Shown: in pieces, positions 1,988 to 45,356 of the stretch | How positions within the stretch are numbered: position 1 is the stretch's first letter | Layout of the letters: each line of letters opens with the position of its first letter | From: Escherichia coli | GTDB taxonomy: Bacteria; Pseudomonadota; Gammaproteobacteria; Enterobacterales; Enterobacteriaceae | Reading direction: 5' to 3' (one strand) | DNA length: 64,000 bases | Assembly (NCBI RefSeq): GCF_001677475.2 | Contig: NZ_CP015229.1 | Translations under genes and position numbers: made by a program | Notes under the pieces: model-generated | Database searches by the model: none | What the model was told of the DNA's origin: nothing | Seen by the model: the letters and a program-made list of their open reading frames with translations, nothing else

Positions 1988-3475
1988 TTATCCGACGCTG
2001 TGTTCAAGACTGATGGCGAGGAGTTTTTGTGCTTCAACGGCAAATTCCAGCGGCAGTTCTGAGAACACGTCTTTGCAGAAACCGTTAACAATCATCGAGA
2101 TGGCATCTTCTTCGCTGATCCCGCGTTGCAGGCAGTAAAACAGTTGATCTTCACCAATACGTGATGTTGTTGCCTCGTGCTCCAGTTGTGCGCTGTTATT
2201 GCGACATTCGACATACGGGAAGGTATGCGCCCCACAATTAGCGCCAATCAGCATTGAGTCGCACTGAGTGAAATTGCGCGCATTGGTTGCCGTCGGCATG
2301 ATTTTCACTAAGCCGCGATAACTGTTCTGACTATGTCCGGCAGAGATCCCTTTCGAGATAATGGTCGATTTGGTGTTTTTACCAATGTGGATCATCTTGG
2401 TGCCGGTATCCGCCTGCTGATGACCGCTGGTCAGTGCCACCGAGTAGAACTCACCGATAGAGTTATCGCCGCGCAGAATGCAGCTTGGGTATTTCCAGGT
2501 AATCGCTGAACCGGTTTCTGATTGCGTCCATGACATCTTGCTGTTTTCGCCTTCGCACAACGCACGCTTGGTGACGAAGTTGAGAATACCACCGGTGTTG
2601 TTATCGCCAGGGAACCAGTTTTGTACCGTGGAATATTTCACCTCGGCGTTTTTATGGATGATGACTTCCACCACCGCCGCGTGTAACTGATAGCTGTCAC
2701 GCACCGGAGCGGAACAGCCTTCGATGTAGCTGACGTAGCTGTCTTCGTCGGCCACCAGAATGGTGCGCTCAAACTGCCCGGTTTTTTCTGCGTTAATGCG
2801 AAAATAGGTGGAAAGTTCCATCGGGCAGCGCACGCCTTTAGGCACATAAATAAACGTACCGTCAGAGGCTACCGCCGCATTAAGCGCGGCAAAGAAGTTG
2901 TCATTCCCCGGCACCACGGTGCCGAGATATTTACGCACCAGTTCCGGGTGATCGTGGATCGCCTCACCAAAGGAACAGAAAATAATTCCCTGCTCCGCCA
3001 GTTTTTCGCGATAAGTAGTGGCAACCGAAACAGAGTCGAAAATGGCATCCACCGCCACCTCTTTGCCTTCCCGCACGGGAACGCCCAACTGCTCAAACGC
3101 CGCCTCCACCTCTTTACTTAAAAAGGCGTTCGCGCCAGTTTGCTGCACCGCGCCAGGTTCAGACGCGCAAGTGTCGTCACAATTACCGCACGATGGTGCC
3201 GAATAGTAGCTGTAATCCTGATAATTCAGCTTGTCGTAGTGCGCTTTCAGCCAGTGCGGCTCTTCCATCTCCAGCCATGCGCGATAGGCATTGAGACGAA
3301 ACTCCAGCATCCACTCCGGCTCATTACGCTTCGCCGAAATTGCGCGCACCACCTCTTCGTTTATCCCCTTTGCCAGCTCATCGGTGGCTAACTGGGTGAA
3401 GAATCCTTCTTTATAATTCAGCGGGCCGCCGGTCCAGGTTTTGACATCGTCAGTTGCTTCAGTATTACGAGACAT
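1988..3475 (-). CDS. sufB: Fe-S cluster scaffold protein SufB
   Basis: ORF 1988..3514; start set at internal Met ([14 protein letters not shown]) which matches the SufB N-terminus as I recall it; synteny. Confidence 0.9.
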
Positions 3476-5099: not shown

Positions 5100-8000
5100 T
5101 TAATAATCTCAAGTAAAGCCTGCACAGGATGGCGTACCCCCGTGCCTTCAACCCGTTTGACCTGACTACGGCAGGAATATCCGGTCGCCAGACAGCGGTT
5201 ACGCGGCAGTCGCTGCATCGCCTGATGCCAGGATAACTCATAGATCCCGAGCGAATTTTTATGGTTTTTCGCTTCATGTCCGTAAGTCCCTGCCATGCCG
5301 CAGCAACCCACGCTGACATTTTCCAGTTTCGCGCCAAAACGGGCAAATATCGCGGCCCATTGTGCTGGCGCGCCCGGCAAAGCGGTAACTTCGGTACAGT
5401 GACCAAAGAAATACCATGATTCACCGCTGACTGTAGCCACTGGCTGTGAGTCAAGTGCGCTTGCCAGCCATTCATTCGCCAGTAAGACGTTAAACTCGCC
5501 ACGTTCCTCGCCCAGCGCCAGTTTATATTCATCGCGATAACAAAGTACCAGCGCCGGATCGACGCCCACCATTGGCATCCCCAGCTTCGCCACACGGTTG
5601 AGGAAATCCGCCGTCTTTTTCGCCGTCTTCGCAAAACGATTAAGAAAGCCTTTAATATGCTGGGCTTTGCCATTTGGCGAAAATGGCAGTAACACAGGCT
5701 GGAAACCTAATTTTTCGACCAGACGGACAAAATCCGCCACCACTTGCGCATCGTAATAGCTGGTAAAGGGGTCCTGCACCACCAACACCGTGCGCGCTTT
5801 CTGCTCTGCATTGAGAGCTTCAAGCTGTTCCAGCGTCATGTTTGCCGAGCGATGCCCCACCATTTGTTGTTGTAGCGAGGGGACCGACAGCAGCGGCAAA
5901 TCAACCATGCCGATATGTTTTTCCGAGAGTTTGCGCACCAGCGGCTGGTTAATGAAGAAGTTAAAGGTTTTCGGCGCGCGTGCCATCAGCGGTGCGTAGC
6001 TCTCGACCGTAGCGACGAGGTGGTCGCGCAGCGGGCGTAAATAACGGGTGTGATAGAGCTGCAGGAAACGAGAGCGAAACTCCGGCACATCAATTTTGAT
6101 GGGGCACTGGGTCGAACAAGCTTTACAGGCCAGACAGCCCGACATCGCCTCTTTGACTTCGTGTGAGAAATCATATTCGCCTTTATTCGCATGCCAGCTA
6201 TTGCGCGTGCGGGCAATTAACGTCCGCAAGCTGACGCCGGATTCAGGCAGTTCTTGTTCCAGTTTGAGTGGGTCAACGCCGCGATCCGCCAACAAACGCA
6301 GCCATTCACGCACCAGCGTTGCGCGCCCTTTAGGTGAATGAATCCGGTTCTGGGTGATCTTCATCGACGGACACATCGGACTACGGGCATCAAAGTTGAA
6401 GCATAAACCGTTGCCGTTACACTCCATCGCACCACGCCACTGCTGGCGTACCGCAATGGGGATCTGCCGGTCGAATGTACCGCGCTTCACCGCGTCCACT
6501 TTCATCATCGTTGCATCGAGACCTTCTGGCGGGCAAATCTTCCCTGGGTTGAGTCGGTTATGCGGGTCAAATGCCGCTTTCACTTTACGCAGTTCTGCAA
6601 AAAGTTCCTCACCGAAAAACGCCGGGCTGTATTCGGCGCGAAAACCTTTGCCGTGTTCGCCCCACAACAAACCACCGTATTTCGCAGTCAGCGCCACCAC
6701 GTCATCAGAGATTTGCTTCATCAAAATCTCTTGTTGCGGATCGCACATATCCAGCGCTGGACGTACGTGCAAGACACCTGCATCGACGTGACCGAACATA
6801 CCGTAGCTTAAGCCGTGGCTGTCGAGCAGCGCGCGAAATTCAGCAATATAATCCGCCAGGTGTTCCGGCGGTACGCAGGTATCCTCAGCAAACGGAATTG
6901 GCTTAGCGGCACCTTTGGCATTGCCAAGCAGACCAACGGCTTTTTTGCGCATCGCATAGATACGTTCAACACCCGCCAGCTCGCGGCACACCTGCCAGCC
7001 GATCACTCCTGCCTGTTGGCTGGCAATCAGCTCATCCAACCGCACACAGAGTGCATTAACTCGCTCGTCAATCAGTGCCTCATCATCACCAGCAAATTCC
7101 ACAATGTTCAGCCCGAGCATCTCTTTGTCAGGCACATCGGTAATCAACTCGCTGACGGAATGCCAGACAATATCTTCCCGCGCCAGATTCAGCACTTTTG
7201 AGTCCACCGTCTCTACCGAAAGCGCCCGCGCCTCAACCATAAACGGCGCGTTACGCAGCGCGGAGTCAAATGAGTCATATTTAACGTTCACCAGACGGCG
7301 CACTTTAGGCAAGCGCGTAATATCCAGCCGCGCTTCGGTAATAAAGGCCAGCGTTCCTTCTGAACCCGTCAGAATGCGCGTCAGGTCGAACTCGGTCATC
7401 TCATCGTTAAAGACATGACGCAGATCGTAACCGGTAAGAAAGCGGTTAAGTTTGGGAAATTTGTCGATGATTAACTGCCGTTGCTGACGGCAGCGTTGAT
7501 AAACCGTTTTATAGATACGCCCGATAGCTGTATTGGTTTTGCCCAGCGTTTCCGCCAGCTCGACGGGTAAAGGTTGCGTATCGAGAATATCCCCCCCCAA
7601 CAACACCGCCCGCACGCCGAGCACGTGATCTGACGTTTTACCATAGACCAGCGATCCCTGACCGGAAGCATCGGTATTGATCATCCCGCCGAGCGTTGCC
7701 CGGTTGCTGGTCGAAAGTTCTGGTGCAAAAAAGTAGCCGAACGGTTTCAGGTACTGGTTAAGCTGATCTTTAATAACCCCCGCTTCAACGCGCACCCAGC
7801 CCTCTTCAGGGTTAATTTCGATGATGCGGTTCATATGACGGGACATATCAACAATAATCCCCTGGTTGAGCGCCTGACCGTTAGTGCCGGTGCCGCCACC
7901 GCGCGGGGTGAAGATCAACGATGAATAGCGTTCCTGCGCAGCCAGACGGGCGATTAATGCCACATCTGCGGTCGAACGCGGAAATACCACTGCGTCGGGG

Positions 8001-40378: not shown

Positions 40379-40768
40379 ATGATTGACGCTCATGACTTCA
40401 CAAGATGGGTGCGCACACAGGACACCCGTCTGGCTCCCGTTCTTCAGGGATTATTTGATCTTTACATCCGTGGTCGTGACAACAGAGCACGCACTACAAA
40501 ACCGGAGAATGCGGACACCCTTTATTTCACAGTAGACGACTGCTACCGCGTGGACTTCACACCACACGGGCTGGCGTTGCACTGCCTGACACCACACGGC
40601 GAATCACTGCTGGCGTATTACGACTCCCCGGCCTCCGTATTTGCGGCAATGCTGGCGCATCGCACTGCTGGCGGGTGTGCCTCGCTGAGTGAATACACCG
40701 CTGAATTTAACCGCCTTTCCGCCATCTTCTCGCAGGAGTGGCAGCGCGTGACGGGATACCAGCCATGA
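40379..40768 (+). CDS. phage early protein, unknown function
   Basis: 129-aa ORF; stop overlaps gpA start (ATGA). Confidence 0.5.
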   Translation: MIDAHDFTRWVRTQDTRLAPVLQGLFDLYIRGRDNRARTTKPENADTLYFTVDDCYRVDFTPHGLALHCLTPHGESLLAYYDSPASVFAAMLAHRTAGGCASLSEYTAEFNRLSAIFSQEWQRVTGYQP

Positions 40769-43605
40769 GTGAGTTTGCATGGAGCTGGAATGAACCACGG
40801 CCAGCCATTGATCCGGCCAGATTTACGGAGCGCAGGCAGGAAACTGAAACCGACCTGCAACGCGCCATCCGTTACTACCTTGAGGCAGACAAAAGGGCAC
40901 AGGAAGAACAGGAAGCGAAGGAAGAAGCCTTTTTCGCACAATCCACCGTGGGTAAAAAACTCATGGCATCCCTTGAGGAAGCCGGACAGCGTGAAAAGCT
41001 GGCACAGAGCATCATCAGTAAGCGCCGGGCAACAGAACAAGACACGGTAGCCCGTGCCTTTGCCACACTAAAGGCACTACCTGTTTATCTGCGTGAACCA
41101 CTGAGCCGCCACCTCTCTTTCCTGCGCAAAAAACAGGAAGCCGATCGCCGGAAAGGCAAAAAGAGCTGGCAGGCGGAACGCTATGCACGCGGAACCCTGC
41201 GCAAAATATTCGAACGTCTGGACCGCACCGACAGCCGCTGGCTGACACCGGGTTATCGCGCCCTTGCCGGACGCGAACGCCTGGACGATTTGCTTTACCT
41301 GCCGCAGCTCAACAAACACCAGATACAGACGCTGGCCACCATGACAGCGGCGATGTTCAGCAGCACCTTCGAAAAACTCTGCGATGGCTTTGGCGCGACT
41401 GATGGCGAGCTGACCATGGATGTAACGCTGAAGGCGTATCAGATGCTGGCCCGCATGGCGTTACACCTGCACGCCATGCCTCCGCATTATGACGTACTGA
41501 CAACAGACAAAGACCGGAGGAACGAACCAGACACAGAACTGCTGCCGGGCGCAATCCTTCGCCTGACCTGTGCGGAATGGTGGAAACGCAAACTGTGGCT
41601 GTTACGTTGCGAGTGGCGGGAAGAACAACTCCGAGCCGCCTGTCTGGTTTCCAGAAAAACATCGCCCTATCTGAGCCAGGACGCGTTAAGCGAGTTTCGC
41701 GCACAGCGCGAGAAAACACGCGATTTCCTGAAAAGTTTCATGCTGGAAAATGAAGACGGGTTCACGATTGATCTCGAGACGGTGTATTACGCGGGAGTAA
41801 GTAACCCGGTTCACCGTAAGGCAGAAATGATGGCCACCATGAAGGGACTGGAACTTCTGGCCGAAGCCCGTGGCGACAGAGCGGTGTTTCTGACCGTCAC
41901 CTGCCCGTCAAAATACCACGCAACAACGGAGAACGGTCATCCGAACCCCAAATGGAACGGGGCCACCATGCGCGACTCCAGCGATTACCTGGTTAACACG
42001 TTTTTTGCGGCGGTCCGCAAAAAACTGAACCGCGACGGCCTGCGCTGGTATGGCATCCGCACGGTGGAGCCTCACCATGACGGCACTGTGCACTGGCATA
42101 TGATGGTCTTTGCACATCCGGACGAGATTGAAACCATCGTGTCCCACGTCTGCGATATTGCCATTCAGGAGGACCGCCACGAGCTGGGCGATGACATAAC
42201 TCCGCGTTTTAAGGCGGAGTATGTCGACGGCTCAAAAGGCACACCAACCAGCTACATCGCCACCTACATCGGAAAGAACTTGGACAGCCGCGCCGTGGAT
42301 GGCATCGACCCGAAAACGGGCAAGCCACGCGTTGACCACGAAACCGGAAAATCAATGGCCGAGAGCGTGGAGCGCGCCATCGGCTGGGCGCGCCTTCACC
42401 GGGTCCGTCAGTTCCAGTTCTTTGGCATCCCCTCCCGTCAGGTGTGGCGTGAACTGCGCCGCCTTGCCAGCCAGATGGCACGCAATCCGGAAGGCCCGCA
42501 ACGGCTGAAAGATGATGCAATGGATGCGGTACTCGCTGCCGCCGATGCCGGGTGTTTTGCCACCTACATTGAAAAACAGGGTGGCGTGCTTGTTCCACGC
42601 AAGGACTACCTGATTCGCACCGCCTACGACCTCGCAGATGAGCTGAACGATTACGGCGAACAGAGCGTACAGATTTACGGGATCTGGTCACCACTCATCG
42701 GGGAATCCTCCCGTGTGTGCACGCATCCGGATAACTGGAAGTTGGTAAGACGTAAACCAGAACCGGAAGACAACGCCCACGAAAATGGTTTTGACCTTCA
42801 GGGCGGCCCTGCCGCCCCTTGGACTCGTGGCAATAACTGTCCCCGTGTACAGGAAACGGACAATAACGGGACAGAACTGCCGGAAGAACGGCCAGCACCG
42901 TGGCCGCAGCTCCCTGACGGCGTTGAAGTGAACGAATGGATGCGCTCACTGAAACAGCACGAACGCCGGGCGCTGATGCGTTCGCTTCGTGACAAACAGG
43001 CAAAAAACAGCAGTGATGAAATGCAGAGCTGGACACAGAGCCGCAAACAGCAGCGGCCTTTGCCTGATAACCACGAATTACTCGCTAAAGAATGGCGGGA
43101 GTCTGCTGAATCTCTCGGCCTGCATATCGGTGAACAACAGATGCAGCACCTGTTACGGGGCGGCAGCCTGTACGTTGACGGCAGCATCATTGCACCGCAG
43201 GGATTTGAAATTGTACGCAAACCGGATACCCGCCCGGACAGCCGAATCACGCAGCTCTGGCAGCGCCTGAGCCGTAATCATGGCGTAAGCAGCACGGAGA
43301 TCCGCCATAACCCGGTCGCCAGCTATCTGGCACAGCTGGGGGCATCAGACCCTGAAGTCGCCGCACGCCTGGCATCCACACTTCAGCAGGACCAGAACAC
43401 CATGAAAACACCCGTTACCGTGCTTTCTGACATGCTGCGCGCCATCCGCGACGCAGAGCACGCACAGAGAATCAGTGAAACCACTGAACGCGCCCGCCGC
43501 AAAGCAGACCTGCTGCGGGGTGGCCTGACCAGTGGAAACAAAAAACAGACAGAAACGGGACTCATGAATCCCGTAAATGAGCAAAAAACGCGCAGCGATA
43601 TATGA
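40765..43605 (+). CDS. rolling-circle replication initiator, P2 gpA-like, with long C-terminal extension
   Basis: ORF 40738..43605; start set at ATG 40765 (MSEFAWSW); HWHMMVF and ATYIGKN motifs typical of gpA-family nicking proteins; 946 aa. Confidence 0.8.
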   Translation: MSEFAWSWNEPRPAIDPARFTERRQETETDLQRAIRYYLEADKRAQEEQEAKEEAFFAQSTVGKKLMASLEEAGQREKLAQSIISKRRATEQDTVARAFATLKALPVYLREPLSRHLSFLRKKQEADRRKGKKSWQAERYARGTLRKIFERLDRTDSRWLTPGYRALAGRERLDDLLYLPQLNKHQIQTLATMTAAMFSSTFEKLCDGFGATDGELTMDVTLKAYQMLARMALHLHAMPPHYDVLTTDKDRRNEPDTELLPGAILRLTCAEWWKRKLWLLRCEWREEQLRAACLVSRKTSPYLSQDALSEFRAQREKTRDFLKSFMLENEDGFTIDLETVYYAGVSNPVHRKAEMMATMKGLELLAEARGDRAVFLTVTCPSKYHATTENGHPNPKWNGATMRDSSDYLVNTFFAAVRKKLNRDGLRWYGIRTVEPHHDGTVHWHMMVFAHPDEIETIVSHVCDIAIQEDRHELGDDITPRFKAEYVDGSKGTPTSYIATYIGKNLDSRAVDGIDPKTGKPRVDHETGKSMAESVERAIGWARLHRVRQFQFFGIPSRQVWRELRRLASQMARNPEGPQRLKDDAMDAVLAAADAGCFATYIEKQGGVLVPRKDYLIRTAYDLADELNDYGEQSVQIYGIWSPLIGESSRVCTHPDNWKLVRRKPEPEDNAHENGFDLQGGPAAPWTRGNNCPRVQETDNNGTELPEERPAPWPQLPDGVEVNEWMRSLKQHERRALMRSLRDKQAKNSSDEMQSWTQSRKQQRPLPDNHELLAKEWRESAESLGLHIGEQQMQHLLRGGSLYVDGSIIAPQGFEIVRKPDTRPDSRITQLWQRLSRNHGVSSTEIRHNPVASYLAQLGASDPEVAARLASTLQQDQNTMKTPVTVLSDMLRAIRDAEHAQRISETTERARRKADLLRGGLTSGNKKQTETGLMNPVNEQKTRSDI

Positions 43606-43650
43606 AGCGCGCACAAAACAGGCAAAAACGGGATTTTAGAATCCCGTAAA
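43554..43650. promoter_or_regulatory. twin palindromic operator-like sites flanking the putative parM promoter
   Basis: AACGGGACTCATGAATCCCGTAAA at 43554..43577 and AACGGGATTTTAGAATCCCGTAAA at 43627..43650, each an inverted repeat ACGGGA-N8-TCCCGT; TATAT between them. Confidence 0.5.
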
Positions 43651-43681
43651 CGATTAATTAATCAACATAAGGAAAAGCGAC

Positions 43682-44641
43682 ATGAAAATTTGTATCGACG
43701 ACGGCTCCACCAACATCAAGCTGGCATGGACTGAGAACGGCGAACGCCGCAACGCCATCAGCCCGAACAGCTTCAAGTCGGAATGGTCTGCGCCGTTCGG
43801 TGGCACGCAGCCCGCGAACTACATGCTTGATGGCGTGCGCTATGGTTTTGATCCGGTCAGCGATCGCTTTGTCCAGACGACCGACACGCAATACCAGTAC
43901 AGCGATGTGAATGTCATTGCCATTCATCACGCGCTGGTCAAATCAGGCATCACGCCACAGGAGGTGGATGTGGTTGTCACCCTGCCACTGAGCGAGTATT
44001 TCGACACAAACGCACAGCCGGACATGGCCAACATCAACCGCAAAAAAGCGAACGTTATGCGCCCGGTGGAGTACCAGAACGGCGAAGCATTCACTATCCG
44101 TAACGTGCGGGTTATGCCTGAATCCATTCCGGCTGGCTTTAAGGCACTGGCTGACATGAGTCCGTTTGAATCCCTGCTGATTGTAGATTTGGGCGGAACC
44201 ACGCTGGATGTGGCAAAGGTTCAGGGGCAACTGGCAGGTATCAGCCAGGTGTTTTGCGATCCACACGTAGGCGTTTCTCTGATGGCCGATGCCGTACTGT
44301 CGGTGATGGCCACTAACGGTATGCGCACCAGTCACCACATCGCCAATACCATTATCGAACATCGCCATAATGAAGCCTGGCTGCGCCAGCACATCCACAA
44401 TGACGCGCATTACGCCAGCCTGATGGAGGTTATTCGTGAAAAGGAAGAAACACTGAAACAACGCGTGATCCGCGCGCTGGCGGGTTTTTCGGGTTACGGG
44501 CGGGTGATGGTTGTCGGTGGAGGGGCGGAGATTGTGGCACCCGCTATCCGCGAAGCCTGCGGAGTTCATGCGACTTTCATCGCGGACGGGGTGCCACAGT
44601 TTGCTCTGGTTAATGGGCTGTACGCAATGGACAAGGAGTAA
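43682..44641 (+). CDS. actin-like ATPase, ParM/StbA family
   Basis: 319-aa ORF; motifs DDGSTNIKL, SPNSFK, YSDVNVIAIHHAL, MPESIPAG, DLGGTTLD, VVGGGAEI align with plasmid R1 ParM as I recall it. Confidence 0.85.
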   Translation: MKICIDDGSTNIKLAWTENGERRNAISPNSFKSEWSAPFGGTQPANYMLDGVRYGFDPVSDRFVQTTDTQYQYSDVNVIAIHHALVKSGITPQEVDVVVTLPLSEYFDTNAQPDMANINRKKANVMRPVEYQNGEAFTIRNVRVMPESIPAGFKALADMSPFESLLIVDLGGTTLDVAKVQGQLAGISQVFCDPHVGVSLMADAVLSVMATNGMRTSHHIANTIIEHRHNEAWLRQHIHNDAHYASLMEVIREKEETLKQRVIRALAGFSGYGRVMVVGGGAEIVAPAIREACGVHATFIADGVPQFALVNGLYAMDKE

Positions 44642-44645
44642 ACCA

Positions 44646-44957
44646 ATGACGACACCAACCAGACGGATAAGTTTCTATCTGAAGCCTGCGGCCGTCAAGA
44701 ACGAAAGCGAAGCATGCGCCTGGCTGGACAGCCTTACACCAGAAGCCCGCAAAAGCGGCCAACGCGTGGCTTTTCTGGCCGGGCTGGCACTTCTGAAAAT
44801 GAATCCGGCAGAGGCTTACCGACTGGCTGCATGGGCTGACGATGAGGCGTTATCAGTGACACAAACCAGGACAGAATGCCCCGCGTCACAGCCAGTATCA
44901 ACCGCACAGATAACCAGTCAGATGGCCGGAAATATCCGGGCGTTATTTCCCGAATAA
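44646..44957 (+). CDS. ParR-like centromere-binding/repressor protein
   Basis: ATG 44646 with GGAG RBS, 103 aa; RRISFYLKP...AWLDSLTPEARKSGQRVAFLAGLAL resembles R1 ParR N-terminal RHH region; immediately downstream of parM-like gene. Confidence 0.7.
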   Translation: MTTPTRRISFYLKPAAVKNESEACAWLDSLTPEARKSGQRVAFLAGLALLKMNPAEAYRLAAWADDEALSVTQTRTECPASQPVSTAQITSQMAGNIRALFPE

Positions 44958-44962
44958 CACAA

Positions 44963-44990
44963 CATCAGGGCGCATCCGCCCTGATGACTT
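44963..44990 (+). terminator. putative terminator after parR-like gene
   Basis: 10-bp stem CATCAGGGCG/CGCCCTGATG with 4-nt loop, followed by short T-rich stretch. Confidence 0.4.
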
Positions 44991-45020
44991 TAATCCGGGA
45001 ACATAAACAAGGGGGACACA

Positions 45021-45356
45021 ATGCAACACATTGACAGAGAAAAAGCGCAGCGACTGATTGAGCGAATGGAAGCGCTGGCGAAAGAAGAAAATGTCAACAT
45101 CCAAAAAATAGCTGAATGTGGCCAGATAGTTCTTCGTCGTGAAAAAGACATCAAGCAACTGATGTCTGGCGAAATCAGCAAAACATGGACTTCAGGCAAG
45201 AAGACGATTTATTGCAGCTTCTGCAATAAATCCCAGCACGAAGTCATAAAGGTGATTGCCGGACCGTCTGTTTACATCTGCAATGAGTGCGTGGATTTGT
45301 GCAATGAAATTATCAGAAGAGAAGTGACAGACCATGAAGAAAAAACGCATGAATGA
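45021..45356 (+). CDS. ClpX-type C4 zinc-binding-domain protein (novel N-terminal helical region fused to ClpX-like ZBD)
   Basis: 111-aa ORF, GGGGGA RBS; residues [38 protein letters not shown] closely match E. coli ClpX N-domain (about 32 of 39 residues by my recollection); no AAA+ module. Confidence 0.8.

Follow-up and report, generated by a model that had tools for sequence, protein, structure and literature searches.

The gpA-like gene of the window, the 64,000-nucleotide stretch of Escherichia coli DNA (contig NZ_CP015229.1) analysed here, probably encodes an intact and functional rolling-circle replication initiator of a P88-like (Xuanwuvirus) prophage, for which a length of 946 residues is the inherited norm of the lineage; the protein would carry the variable tail that its family has beyond the replication origin, and its last ~36 residues would arise by read-through into a parMR cassette. 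We interpret the tail as an elaboration of the family's variable post-origin region and not as an acquisition, because it lacks homologues outside gpA proteins and its core module aligns with the C-terminus of P2 A.

The open reading frame (40765-43605, + strand; 946 aa plus stop) is identified as a gpA-type rolling-circle replication initiator by Pfam and PHROG profiles and by its match to PhiR44_2. The Phage_GPA profile (PF05840) scores 432.1 bits against a cut-off of 31.4, with profile positions 1-321 of 321 aligned to residues 185-509, and this segment together with the motif alignment defines the catalytic domain (41317-42291, + strand). A second profile, phrog_91 ('nicking at origin of replication'), aligns over the full length (residues 2-946; E = 8e-275). 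The HUH-type motif HWH (residues 443-445; 42091-42099) aligns with the HWH of P2 A, and the two-tyrosine motif YIATY (42253-42267) places Y497 and Y501 within YIATYIGKN with YxxxY spacing; the corresponding P2 A segments are EPHHDGTPHWHMM and GYIAKYISKN. The role of the two tyrosines in P2 A was addressed by Odegrip and Haggard-Ljungquist (2001), as relayed in PMC3986222. The 946-aa protein thus has the family profile, the HUH and YxxxY motifs and an origin, recognised by its sequence, inside the gene; at the sequence level it is a P2-family (Phage_GPA/HUH) rolling-circle initiator, with nicking, covalent attachment and cis action as its predicted properties.

There are two in-frame starts for this reading frame, a GTG at 40738 and an ATG at 40765, both leading to the end at 43605 (+ strand). 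Taking the ATG as the start gives the 946 residues reported in the earlier note; it overlaps the stop codon of a 129-aa ORF upstream (ATGA), and the same start is used in the annotation of PhiR44_2, whose replication protein (XSB42701) is also 946 aa long and is 96.8% identical to this gpA. The replication protein of P88 (AIZ95124), a mitomycin-inducible and plaque-forming phage (PMC5285337) of proven viability like PhiR44_2, has 940 aa and 90% identity, and the two prophages share a gene order of small early genes, gpA, parM, a parR-like gene, a ClpX-zinc-finger ORF and portal. Judged by gpA identity and by the synteny around gpA, the prophage is a Xuanwuvirus (P88-like Peduoviridae). Clustering at 90% identity puts the 946-aa form in a group of 16,881 sequences, and among 5,426 complete E. 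coli genomes 1,290 (roughly a quarter) have the tail DNA. The earlier note held that its case would fail if other well-studied P2-family A proteins were equally long; P2 and 186 A are shorter, whereas P88 and the prophages of that quarter of complete E. coli genomes have gpA proteins of this length, so the 946-aa gpA is the ordinary protein of a prophage genus common in E. coli, already on record as a 'replication endonuclease', and carries little weight as a discovery.

P2 A, given previously as about 760 aa, measures 761 aa (L002:1366-3651), and the excess in the 946-aa protein is therefore 185 residues; 186 A has 694 aa. Counted from the conserved NNC motif encoded by the origin, 254 residues follow in the 946-aa gpA and 135 in P2 A, and 689 and 623 residues respectively precede it. 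Of the 185 residues in excess, about 119-120 (roughly 65%) thus lie past the motif, as expected from the description of the excess as mostly C-terminal, with the remainder accounted for in the alignment by an N-terminal insert (about residues 17-85) and small loops. The excess has three parts: about 65 residues inserted before the origin, chiefly the N-terminal insert; about 84 residues by which the family's variable region after the origin is lengthened (aa 693-909); and about 36 residues (aa 910-946) read through into the cargo hotspot at its left edge. The N-terminal variable region (aa 1-120; 40765-41124, + strand), which includes an insert of ~50 aa with no counterpart in the aligned P2 and 186 proteins, exists as at least two alleles among close relatives, and identity to one of these (L012) is 20-67% within 40765-41124 and 88-100% from 41125 on. 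The tail had also been called Arg/Gln-rich, which is true only mildly: Arg and Gln make up 10.2% and 8.3% of residues 693-946, compared with 7.9% and 3.2% of the core.

The putative origin (nick) core, GCCCCTTGGACTCGTGGCAATAACTGTCCC, is located at 42814-42843 (+ strand) and encodes APWTRGNNCP. Its position is based on the annotation of the 186 record, in which the rep_origin maps to about 42822, and on a match to the P2 origin sequence CTCGGAGTCCTGTCAATAAC (15 of 20 bases, at 42818-42837). By analogy with P2 and 186, gpA would nick an origin that its own gene contains (about 42814-42843), and the cut would be made by the HUH motif and the Tyr497/Tyr501 centre. The 30-nt core is identical in seven loci among which gpA identity is as low as 43% (43-59%), and in one lineage the exchanged block reaches back to this core. 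It is possible, though in our view unlikely, that the core inside gpA is a junction for recombination, brought about by its 30 invariant bases or by gpA-catalysed strand transfer, and that the post-origin part of the gene is swapped between distant P2-like lineages along with the cargo (here parMRC). If this is true, the cargo hotspot in effect begins at the nick site within the replication gene, and the long tail is a co-transferred module that may have a cargo-linked function of its own; an invariant origin core acting as a mosaic junction is a modest lead for researchers in P2-type replication.

The post-origin C-terminal region (aa 694-909; 42844-43491, + strand) is set apart by protein-level constraint, by AF2 models and by its retention in Hafnia, where a gpA homologue retains the tail at 47% identity. 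Over about residues 693-909 pN/pS is 0.12-0.20 in 11 sequences, including loci with unrelated cargo, which indicates purifying selection. The AF2 models, built on shallow alignments of 15-18 sequences, place a basic helix at aa 722-746 and, after a linker predicted to be disordered, an alpha-alpha-beta3 module at aa 770-820; helices follow at aa 826-876, and then a 40-residue helix (aa 883-922). In alignments the alpha/beta module is common to the gpA C-termini of P2, Klebsiella and Salmonella, the part of the extra helices at aa 826-872 is also present in type II gpA and in P0023, and the 40-residue helix is confined to this gpA lineage. Post-origin length varies from 76 to 254 aa across the family, with the 946-aa lineage the longest seen, and all 25 members examined have at least 76 codons past the origin. 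Everything beyond the origin would thus form a modular region of variable length, composed here of the basic helix, the alpha/beta module shared with P2 and additional helices, the latter probably kept by purifying selection. The most likely role of these extra helices is accessory and non-catalytic, assisting initiation or termination through protein or DNA contacts. Such constrained and uncharacterised C-terminal modules of gpA offer a modest lead for work on P2-type replication.

The last segment of the reading frame (aa 910-946; 43492-43602, + strand) is distinguished from the preceding region by a homology boundary, by pN/pS, by pLDDT and by length variants, all consistent with a cargo-derived ORF end. 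Homology of the DNA with relatives that have other cargo stops at about 43490-43511, and the DNA alignment sets the boundary at about 43490-43500. No protein-level constraint on aa 910-946 was detected by pN/pS in seven sequences; the value of 1.63 rests on 12 variable sites, and the scarcity of synonymous changes could stem from constraint on the DNA (the parC-like site) and not from neutrality of the peptide. The segment is predicted to be disordered, with AF2 confidence low from about residue 932 (block mean pLDDT of 47 for aa 932-941; pLDDT below 50 at aa 932-936 and 938-946). The length of gpA follows the cargo, with 916 aa next to AAA+S8, 910 aa next to reverse-strand cargo, and 946, 925 or 963 aa next to ParMR, where the 925- and 963-aa forms are frameshift variants; lengths that range from 910 to 963 aa in near-identical phages are therefore not to be taken as the gain or loss of a domain. 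In type II loci, the last 21 residues of gpA recur in kind at the end of a 155-aa ORF that is unrelated. The reading frame would run on into the left edge of the gpA-gpQ hotspot and stop at the first stop codon; here that edge would be formed by the parC-like repeats of a ParM/ParR cassette, and the ~36 residues at the end would be no designed part of the protein. The annotated length of gpA in P2-like prophages is thus partly dictated by the downstream cargo cassette, and a pipeline that uses gene boundaries as the limits of the gpA-gpQ hotspot overlooks that the variable DNA starts inside gpA.

The cargo cassette begins with parM (43682-44641, + strand), which encodes a 319-aa ParM/StbA actin-like segregation ATPase (Pfam StbA_N, 1.8e-82; ParM_N, 1.2e-67) and is annotated in RefSeq as 'plasmid segregation protein ParM'; it is followed by a gene for a 104-aa ParR/StbB-like adaptor (44643-44957, + strand; Pfam Plasmid_stab_B, 1.8e-24). 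An actin-like ParM ATPase and a small ParR-like adaptor are the gene complement of a type II (ParMRC) system. Upstream of parM there are two 42-nt direct repeats 73 nt apart, such matches being found in 0 of 100 shuffles, and each contains a palindrome. The first repeat (43539-43580) has the palindrome ACGGGACTCATGAATCCCGT at 43555-43574 and is a candidate parC-like site; this palindrome is, as noted earlier, within the gpA ORF, and it lies 31 nt ahead of the stop. The second (43612-43653), with ACGGGATTTTAGAATCCCGT at 43628-43647, is intergenic and 35 nt upstream of parM. These give two conserved 25-nt palindromic sites that differ in number and architecture from R1 parC. The DNA of the first repeat is conserved in Hafnia, where it is read in another frame and the gpA stop is in the palindrome loop. 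A promoter scan found no sigma-70 consensus promoter in 42500-45200, and the palindromes look terminator-like on the minus strand only; we therefore claim no promoter or terminator role for them.

The extension had been proposed to be a fused accessory domain, that is, a former downstream gene or an acquired domain with its own activity. It is indeed long and ordered, with aa 707-909 under purifying selection, and relatives with a shorter gpA have small overlapping ORFs right after it (155 aa in L012, 143 and 100 aa in L018, and orf91 in P2), so that a route to fusion is conceivable. However, these downstream ORFs have no similarity to the tail except in the cassette-derived last 21 residues, and gpA of P2, Klebsiella and Salmonella has a C-terminus that aligns with the central module. 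Whether the query was the whole protein or its C-terminal 234 aa, searches of Pfam, NCBIfam and PDB sequences matched nothing other than Phage_GPA; the matches to Death and RBM39 were weak and below threshold. An exhaustive HMMER scan with aa 803-946 against 1.84 billion representatives returned its own clade and a few gpA C-termini, with no relative outside gpA proteins; two repetitive proteins of ~2,900-3,000 aa and a repetitive 673-aa protein (P0021) also appeared and were judged spurious. The tail and a profile of the module, used in word-indexed searches, retrieved mostly gpA fragments. Some profile matches annotated as Phage_Cox had suggested a winged helix, but they consist of a Cox N-terminus joined to a P2 A C-terminus and are deletion chimeras of defective P2 prophages, and this lead was therefore dropped. 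In structural comparisons no known fold matches the tail, and the alpha-alpha-beta3 module (aa 770-820) has no significant match to a winged-helix or other known DNA-binding fold. The proposal of a fused foreign domain is thus very unlikely and is not retained.

Functional coupling of the tail to the ParMR island, whereby reading through the first parC-like site or contact of the tail with ParR or ParM would link replication initiation with partition or island expression, is somewhat less improbable than such a fusion, and still quite unlikely. The first parC-like palindrome is inside the gpA ORF, parM follows the type I tail in 1,290 of the 1,372 complete E. coli genomes bearing the tail (94%), Hafnia retains both tail and parMR, and in the chimera L010 the post-origin tail and parMR are contiguous, consistent with transfer as one block. 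Linkage and clonality can account for this co-occurrence, however, and the tail up to residue 909 is kept beside unrelated cargo, in loci that were pooled in the 11-sequence selection test. Moreover, the residues overlapping the site have no detectable protein-level constraint, in Hafnia, L010 and L013 they differ in reading frame or length, and the same site region terminates an unrelated ORF in type II loci. The earlier idea of coupling to the downstream island stands in a physical sense, in that the last ~21-36 codons change with the cargo, and does not extend to the bulk of the tail (aa 693-909). P2 A is described as cis-acting with its origin inside the gene (PMC3986222), and the minimum of 76 post-origin codons throughout the family would fit a tail that serves as a tether or timer, holding the catalytic domain near its own origin during translation of 254 codons, with tail length tuning the cis-preference; but selection acts on the amino-acid sequence and not on length alone, and folded modules are predicted, which makes this a highly improbable account. 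It is scarcely credible that the long ORF is an artefact, whether through a wrongly called start or as a pseudogene created by frameshift or read-through. The variety of end lengths (910, 916, 925, 946 and 963 aa) might suggest it, but over a thousand genomes carry this ORF, as do phages that can be induced and form plaques, its start and the stop upstream share bases just as annotated in PhiR44_2, and purifying selection extends through residue 909; this reading is effectively refuted for aa 1-909, with aa 910-946 incidental.

As an inherited initiator with a variable post-origin tail, the 946-aa gpA closely resembles those of P88 and PhiR44_2, with the same tail, twin repeats and downstream ParM and ParR-like genes; it differs from P88 in having another allele of the N-terminal ~120 aa, and the differences are allelic only. 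With P2 and 186 A it shares the Phage_GPA domain, the HUH and YxxxY motifs, an origin-like sequence at the equivalent position of the gene and the basic helix after the origin. The alpha/beta C-terminal module is present in P2 A and missing from 186 A, and the extra helices (aa 826-922) distinguish it from both. Its start overlaps an upstream ORF stop as in 186, where translation of A appears to need orf84 to be translated to its end. It is only 31% identical to P2 A, which it exceeds by about 65 residues ahead of the origin and by about 119 beyond it; its ORF end enters the parMR cassette, whereas in P2 orf91 and the old/tin region come next after gpA. The cassette resembles parMRC (stbAB) of R1/NR1 in having ParM followed by a small Plasmid_stab_B protein, with repeated palindromes where parC would be. 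R1 parC comprises ten 11-bp iterons; here there are just two 25-nt candidate sites, 73 nt apart, and the locus is in an integrating prophage. The gpA-gpQ interval of P2-like phages is a hotspot for cargo and defence genes (Rousset et al. 2022, PMC9122126), and the prophage conforms to this in having variable DNA directly after gpA, with differing cassettes in close relatives. It departs from that description in that the left boundary is inside the annotated gpA ORF, about 36 codons ahead of the stop, and in that its cargo serves partition and is none of the recognised defence systems.

The window gpA is encoded on the plus strand from either a GTG at 40738 or an ATG at 40765 to position 43605, and the ATG overlaps the stop codon of an upstream 129-aa ORF (ATGA). 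The replication protein of Escherichia phage PhiR44_2 (96.8% identical) is annotated with the same start as the 40765 ATG and has the same ATGA overlap; from this start the window product is 946 aa long. The earlier note had put gpA at about 185 aa longer than P2 A, and this excess is correct since P2 A is 761 aa in the fetched record; 186 A is 694 aa. The protein has a Pfam match to Phage_GPA (432 bits, aa 185-509), and PHROG 91 ('nicking at origin of replication') and PHROG 6857 cover it end to end, C-terminus included. BLASTP aligns it with P2 A at 31% identity across aa 91-743, and its HUH-type motif (HWH at aa 443-445) and its pair of tyrosines (the two-tyrosine motif, Y497 and Y501) both align with their P2 A counterparts. 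By sequence it is an intact initiator of the P2 family that has the catalytic motifs, and an origin-like core lies within the gene that encodes it; from what is known of P2 and 186, we infer that it would nick at this core and drive rolling-circle replication in cis.

The origins of P2 and 186 lie inside gene A (PMC3986222), and the 186 record has a rep_origin annotated there. The P2 origin sequence CTCGGAGTCCTGTCAATAAC is located at 3221-3240 of the P2 locus (L002), and its 186 counterpart at 5573-5592 of the 186 locus (L004); the window counterpart, CCTTGGACTCGTGGCAATAAC, falls within 42814-42843 and encodes APWTRGNNCP. The extra residues were located by counting from the NNC motif of this peptide, with 689 residues before it and 254 after it in the window gpA, 623 and 135 in P2 A, and 614 and 77 in 186 A; relative to P2 A, approximately 65 extra residues therefore precede the origin and approximately 119 follow it. 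The pre-origin excess consists mainly of an insert at about aa 17-85, also present in the gpA of a Klebsiella Dagavirus phage, plus small loops. Codons 1 to ~120 (40765-41124) fall into two or more alleles (MSEFAWSW... and MTAEYIRDW...) that are unrelated to each other, in genes that are otherwise nearly identical, and the N-terminus of gpA is therefore mosaic too.

The 30-nt core GCCCCTTGGACTCGTGGCAATAACTGTCCC (42814-42843) is identical in the window, the Klebsiella Dagavirus phage, Hafnia, and loci of all tail types (the window, L003, L007, L010, L011, L012 and L018), despite gpA identities to the window of only 43% in the Klebsiella phage and 59% in Hafnia, and the sequence flanking it diverges on both sides. 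The gpA gene at locus L010 is a chimera with its junction at the core. On the left side L010 is Klebsiella-type, and 60-nt windows there are 28-75% identical to the window; on the right side, identity to the window is 92-100% across a P88-type tail and on into parMR. An exchange with its junction in the origin core therefore gave rise to at least one lineage, and we regard this junction as a minor lead. Other junctions are a switch between tail types I and II at ~42985 and the N-terminal alleles before 41125.

Within the family, the post-origin region of gpA (aa ~693-946; the tail) behaves as a variable cassette, ranging from 76 to 254 aa among 25 members, with recognisable types on nearly identical cores: type I (229-254 aa, as in this window), type II (181-189 aa, as in the protein P0064 and its relatives), type III (138-142 aa, the prophage CP-933T type) and type IV (76 aa, as in Salmonella). 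Shared elements include a basic helix with the pattern W-[LM]-R-S-L..E-R-R and a module, found in P2 A as well, in which a beta hairpin comes after the pattern LG-x-x-L....LL-R-G-G. Types I and II, together with the protein P0023, also have the segment R-I-T-x-x-W-x-R....H-G-V...I-R-x-N-P, and only type I and the Hafnia relative have an extra long helix (LSDMLRAIRDAEHAQ...). The Hafnia homologue, 59% identical overall, keeps the whole tail, long helix included. When 11 type I sequences were compared in the style of Nei-Gojobori, the pN/pS values were 0.12 for aa 707-802, 0.20 for aa 803-872, 0.19 for aa 873-909, and 1.63 for aa 910-946 (7 sequences, with only 12 variable nucleotides). An AF2 model of aa 682-946 (mean pLDDT 72) predicts helices at aa 722-746 followed by a disordered linker, a compact alpha-alpha-beta3 module at aa 770-820 (pLDDT 80-94) that was reproduced in a second model of aa 762-870, helices at aa 826-876, and a 40-residue helix at aa 883-922, beyond which there is no regular secondary structure; pLDDT falls below 50 from about aa 932.

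Apparent matches of the tail to Cox domains were rejected as deletion chimeras. Three small proteins from E. coli contigs (P0169, P0170 and P0180) join the P2 Cox N-terminus to the P2 A C-terminus and are presumably left over from deletions in defective P2 prophages; such chimeras can mislead domain searches.

The extreme C-terminus of gpA differs among close relatives that have the same tail and other cargo between gpA and gpQ. The protein is 916 aa beside an AAA ATPase and S8 peptidase (L007), 910 aa where the cargo is on the reverse strand (L008 and L009), and 946 aa beside ParM/ParR in this window, with ParM/ParR frameshift variants of 925 aa (L010) and 963 aa (L013, NZ_AP027818.1); in the last of these the frameshift is near the gpA end and the annotated ORF crosses the intergenic region to the second palindrome. 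Backbone homology ends at ~43490-43500 in DNA alignments, in agreement with one E. coli genome (H93) whose match ends at query position 662 (window 43511). Type II loci have a separate 155-aa ORF between gpA and parM ending ...EKQTKTGFTNPVNEQKTRRDI, the last 21 residues of the window gpA. This ORF (L012:5628-6095) is Cys-rich (CxxC...CxxC), has no Pfam match, and its final 21 codons are the parC-like repeat DNA that ends the window gpA. The first cassette repeat is read through by whichever ORF precedes the cassette; in Hafnia the repeat region is kept as DNA, but there gpA uses a different frame and its stop falls in the palindrome loop. On the sequence evidence the last ~36 residues belong to the cargo and are unconstrained. 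Between gpA and gpQ, P2-like phages have a published cargo hotspot (PMC9122126), the left boundary of which falls within the gpA ORF in the window.

The cassette at 43539-44957 is a ParM/StbA and ParR/StbB-like type II partition cassette within this hotspot of an integrating P2-like prophage. Two 25-nt palindromic sites AAACGGGAYTNNNGAATCCCGTAAA (43553-43577 and 43626-43650; 73 nt apart and found nowhere else in the window) directly precede the ParM gene (43682-44641), which is followed by a Plasmid_stab_B/ParR-like gene (44643-44957); the sites are most simply read as a putative parC-like centromere or operator belonging to this cassette. Hafnia shows the same conserved arrangement, and ~24% of complete E. 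coli genomes contain it. The parR-like gene is closely followed by a 111-aa ORF (45021-45356) that is conserved in P88 and PhiR44_2; it lacks an ATPase domain and is almost entirely a C4 zinc finger of the ClpX type (Pfam zf-C4_ClpX, 1.4e-17).

The earlier suggestion of coupling to the downstream island holds in a physical sense, the last 21-36 codons being island DNA with the first parC-like site, but in no other, and a functional coupling of the tail to ParMR is unlikely. The suggestion of a fused accessory domain was not borne out: in an exhaustive HMMER scan covering 1.84 billion representatives, aa 803-946 had no relatives outside gpA, a tail profile search returned gpA fragments only, and the tail has no similarity, apart from its last 21 residues, to small ORFs after gpA in relatives. 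A foreign domain fused onto gpA is accordingly quite improbable. Because the pN/pS values, the Hafnia tail, the AF2 models and these searches combine, we conclude that aa 693-909 are a constrained, family-internal, structurally orphan accessory region and not an imported domain. This region might mediate non-catalytic contacts in initiation or termination, and a role as a cis-tether or timer seems very doubtful; such uncharacterised C-terminal modules are a minor lead. That the long ORF is an artefact is scarcely credible.

One cluster of the 946-aa form at 90% identity contains 16,881 sequences, which carry the annotation 'replication endonuclease', and the tail DNA with the parM junction is present in 1,290 of 5,426 complete E. 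coli genomes (at least 80% coverage). The long gpA is therefore the rule in a prophage lineage that is very common and not an anomaly of the window; it is ordinary and already catalogued. The record L019 (NZ_CP148288.1), a circular 'plasmid' of 34.5 kb from an E. coli isolate, is an entire P88-like phage genome with integrase, 946-aa gpA, parMR and structural genes; it may represent a form that is excised or replicating, or else an episomal state. The window phage is a member of the P88-like group (genus Xuanwuvirus). P88 itself is mitomycin C-inducible and plaque-forming (PMC5285337), and encodes a replication protein of 940 aa followed by the same genes as those downstream of the window gpA.
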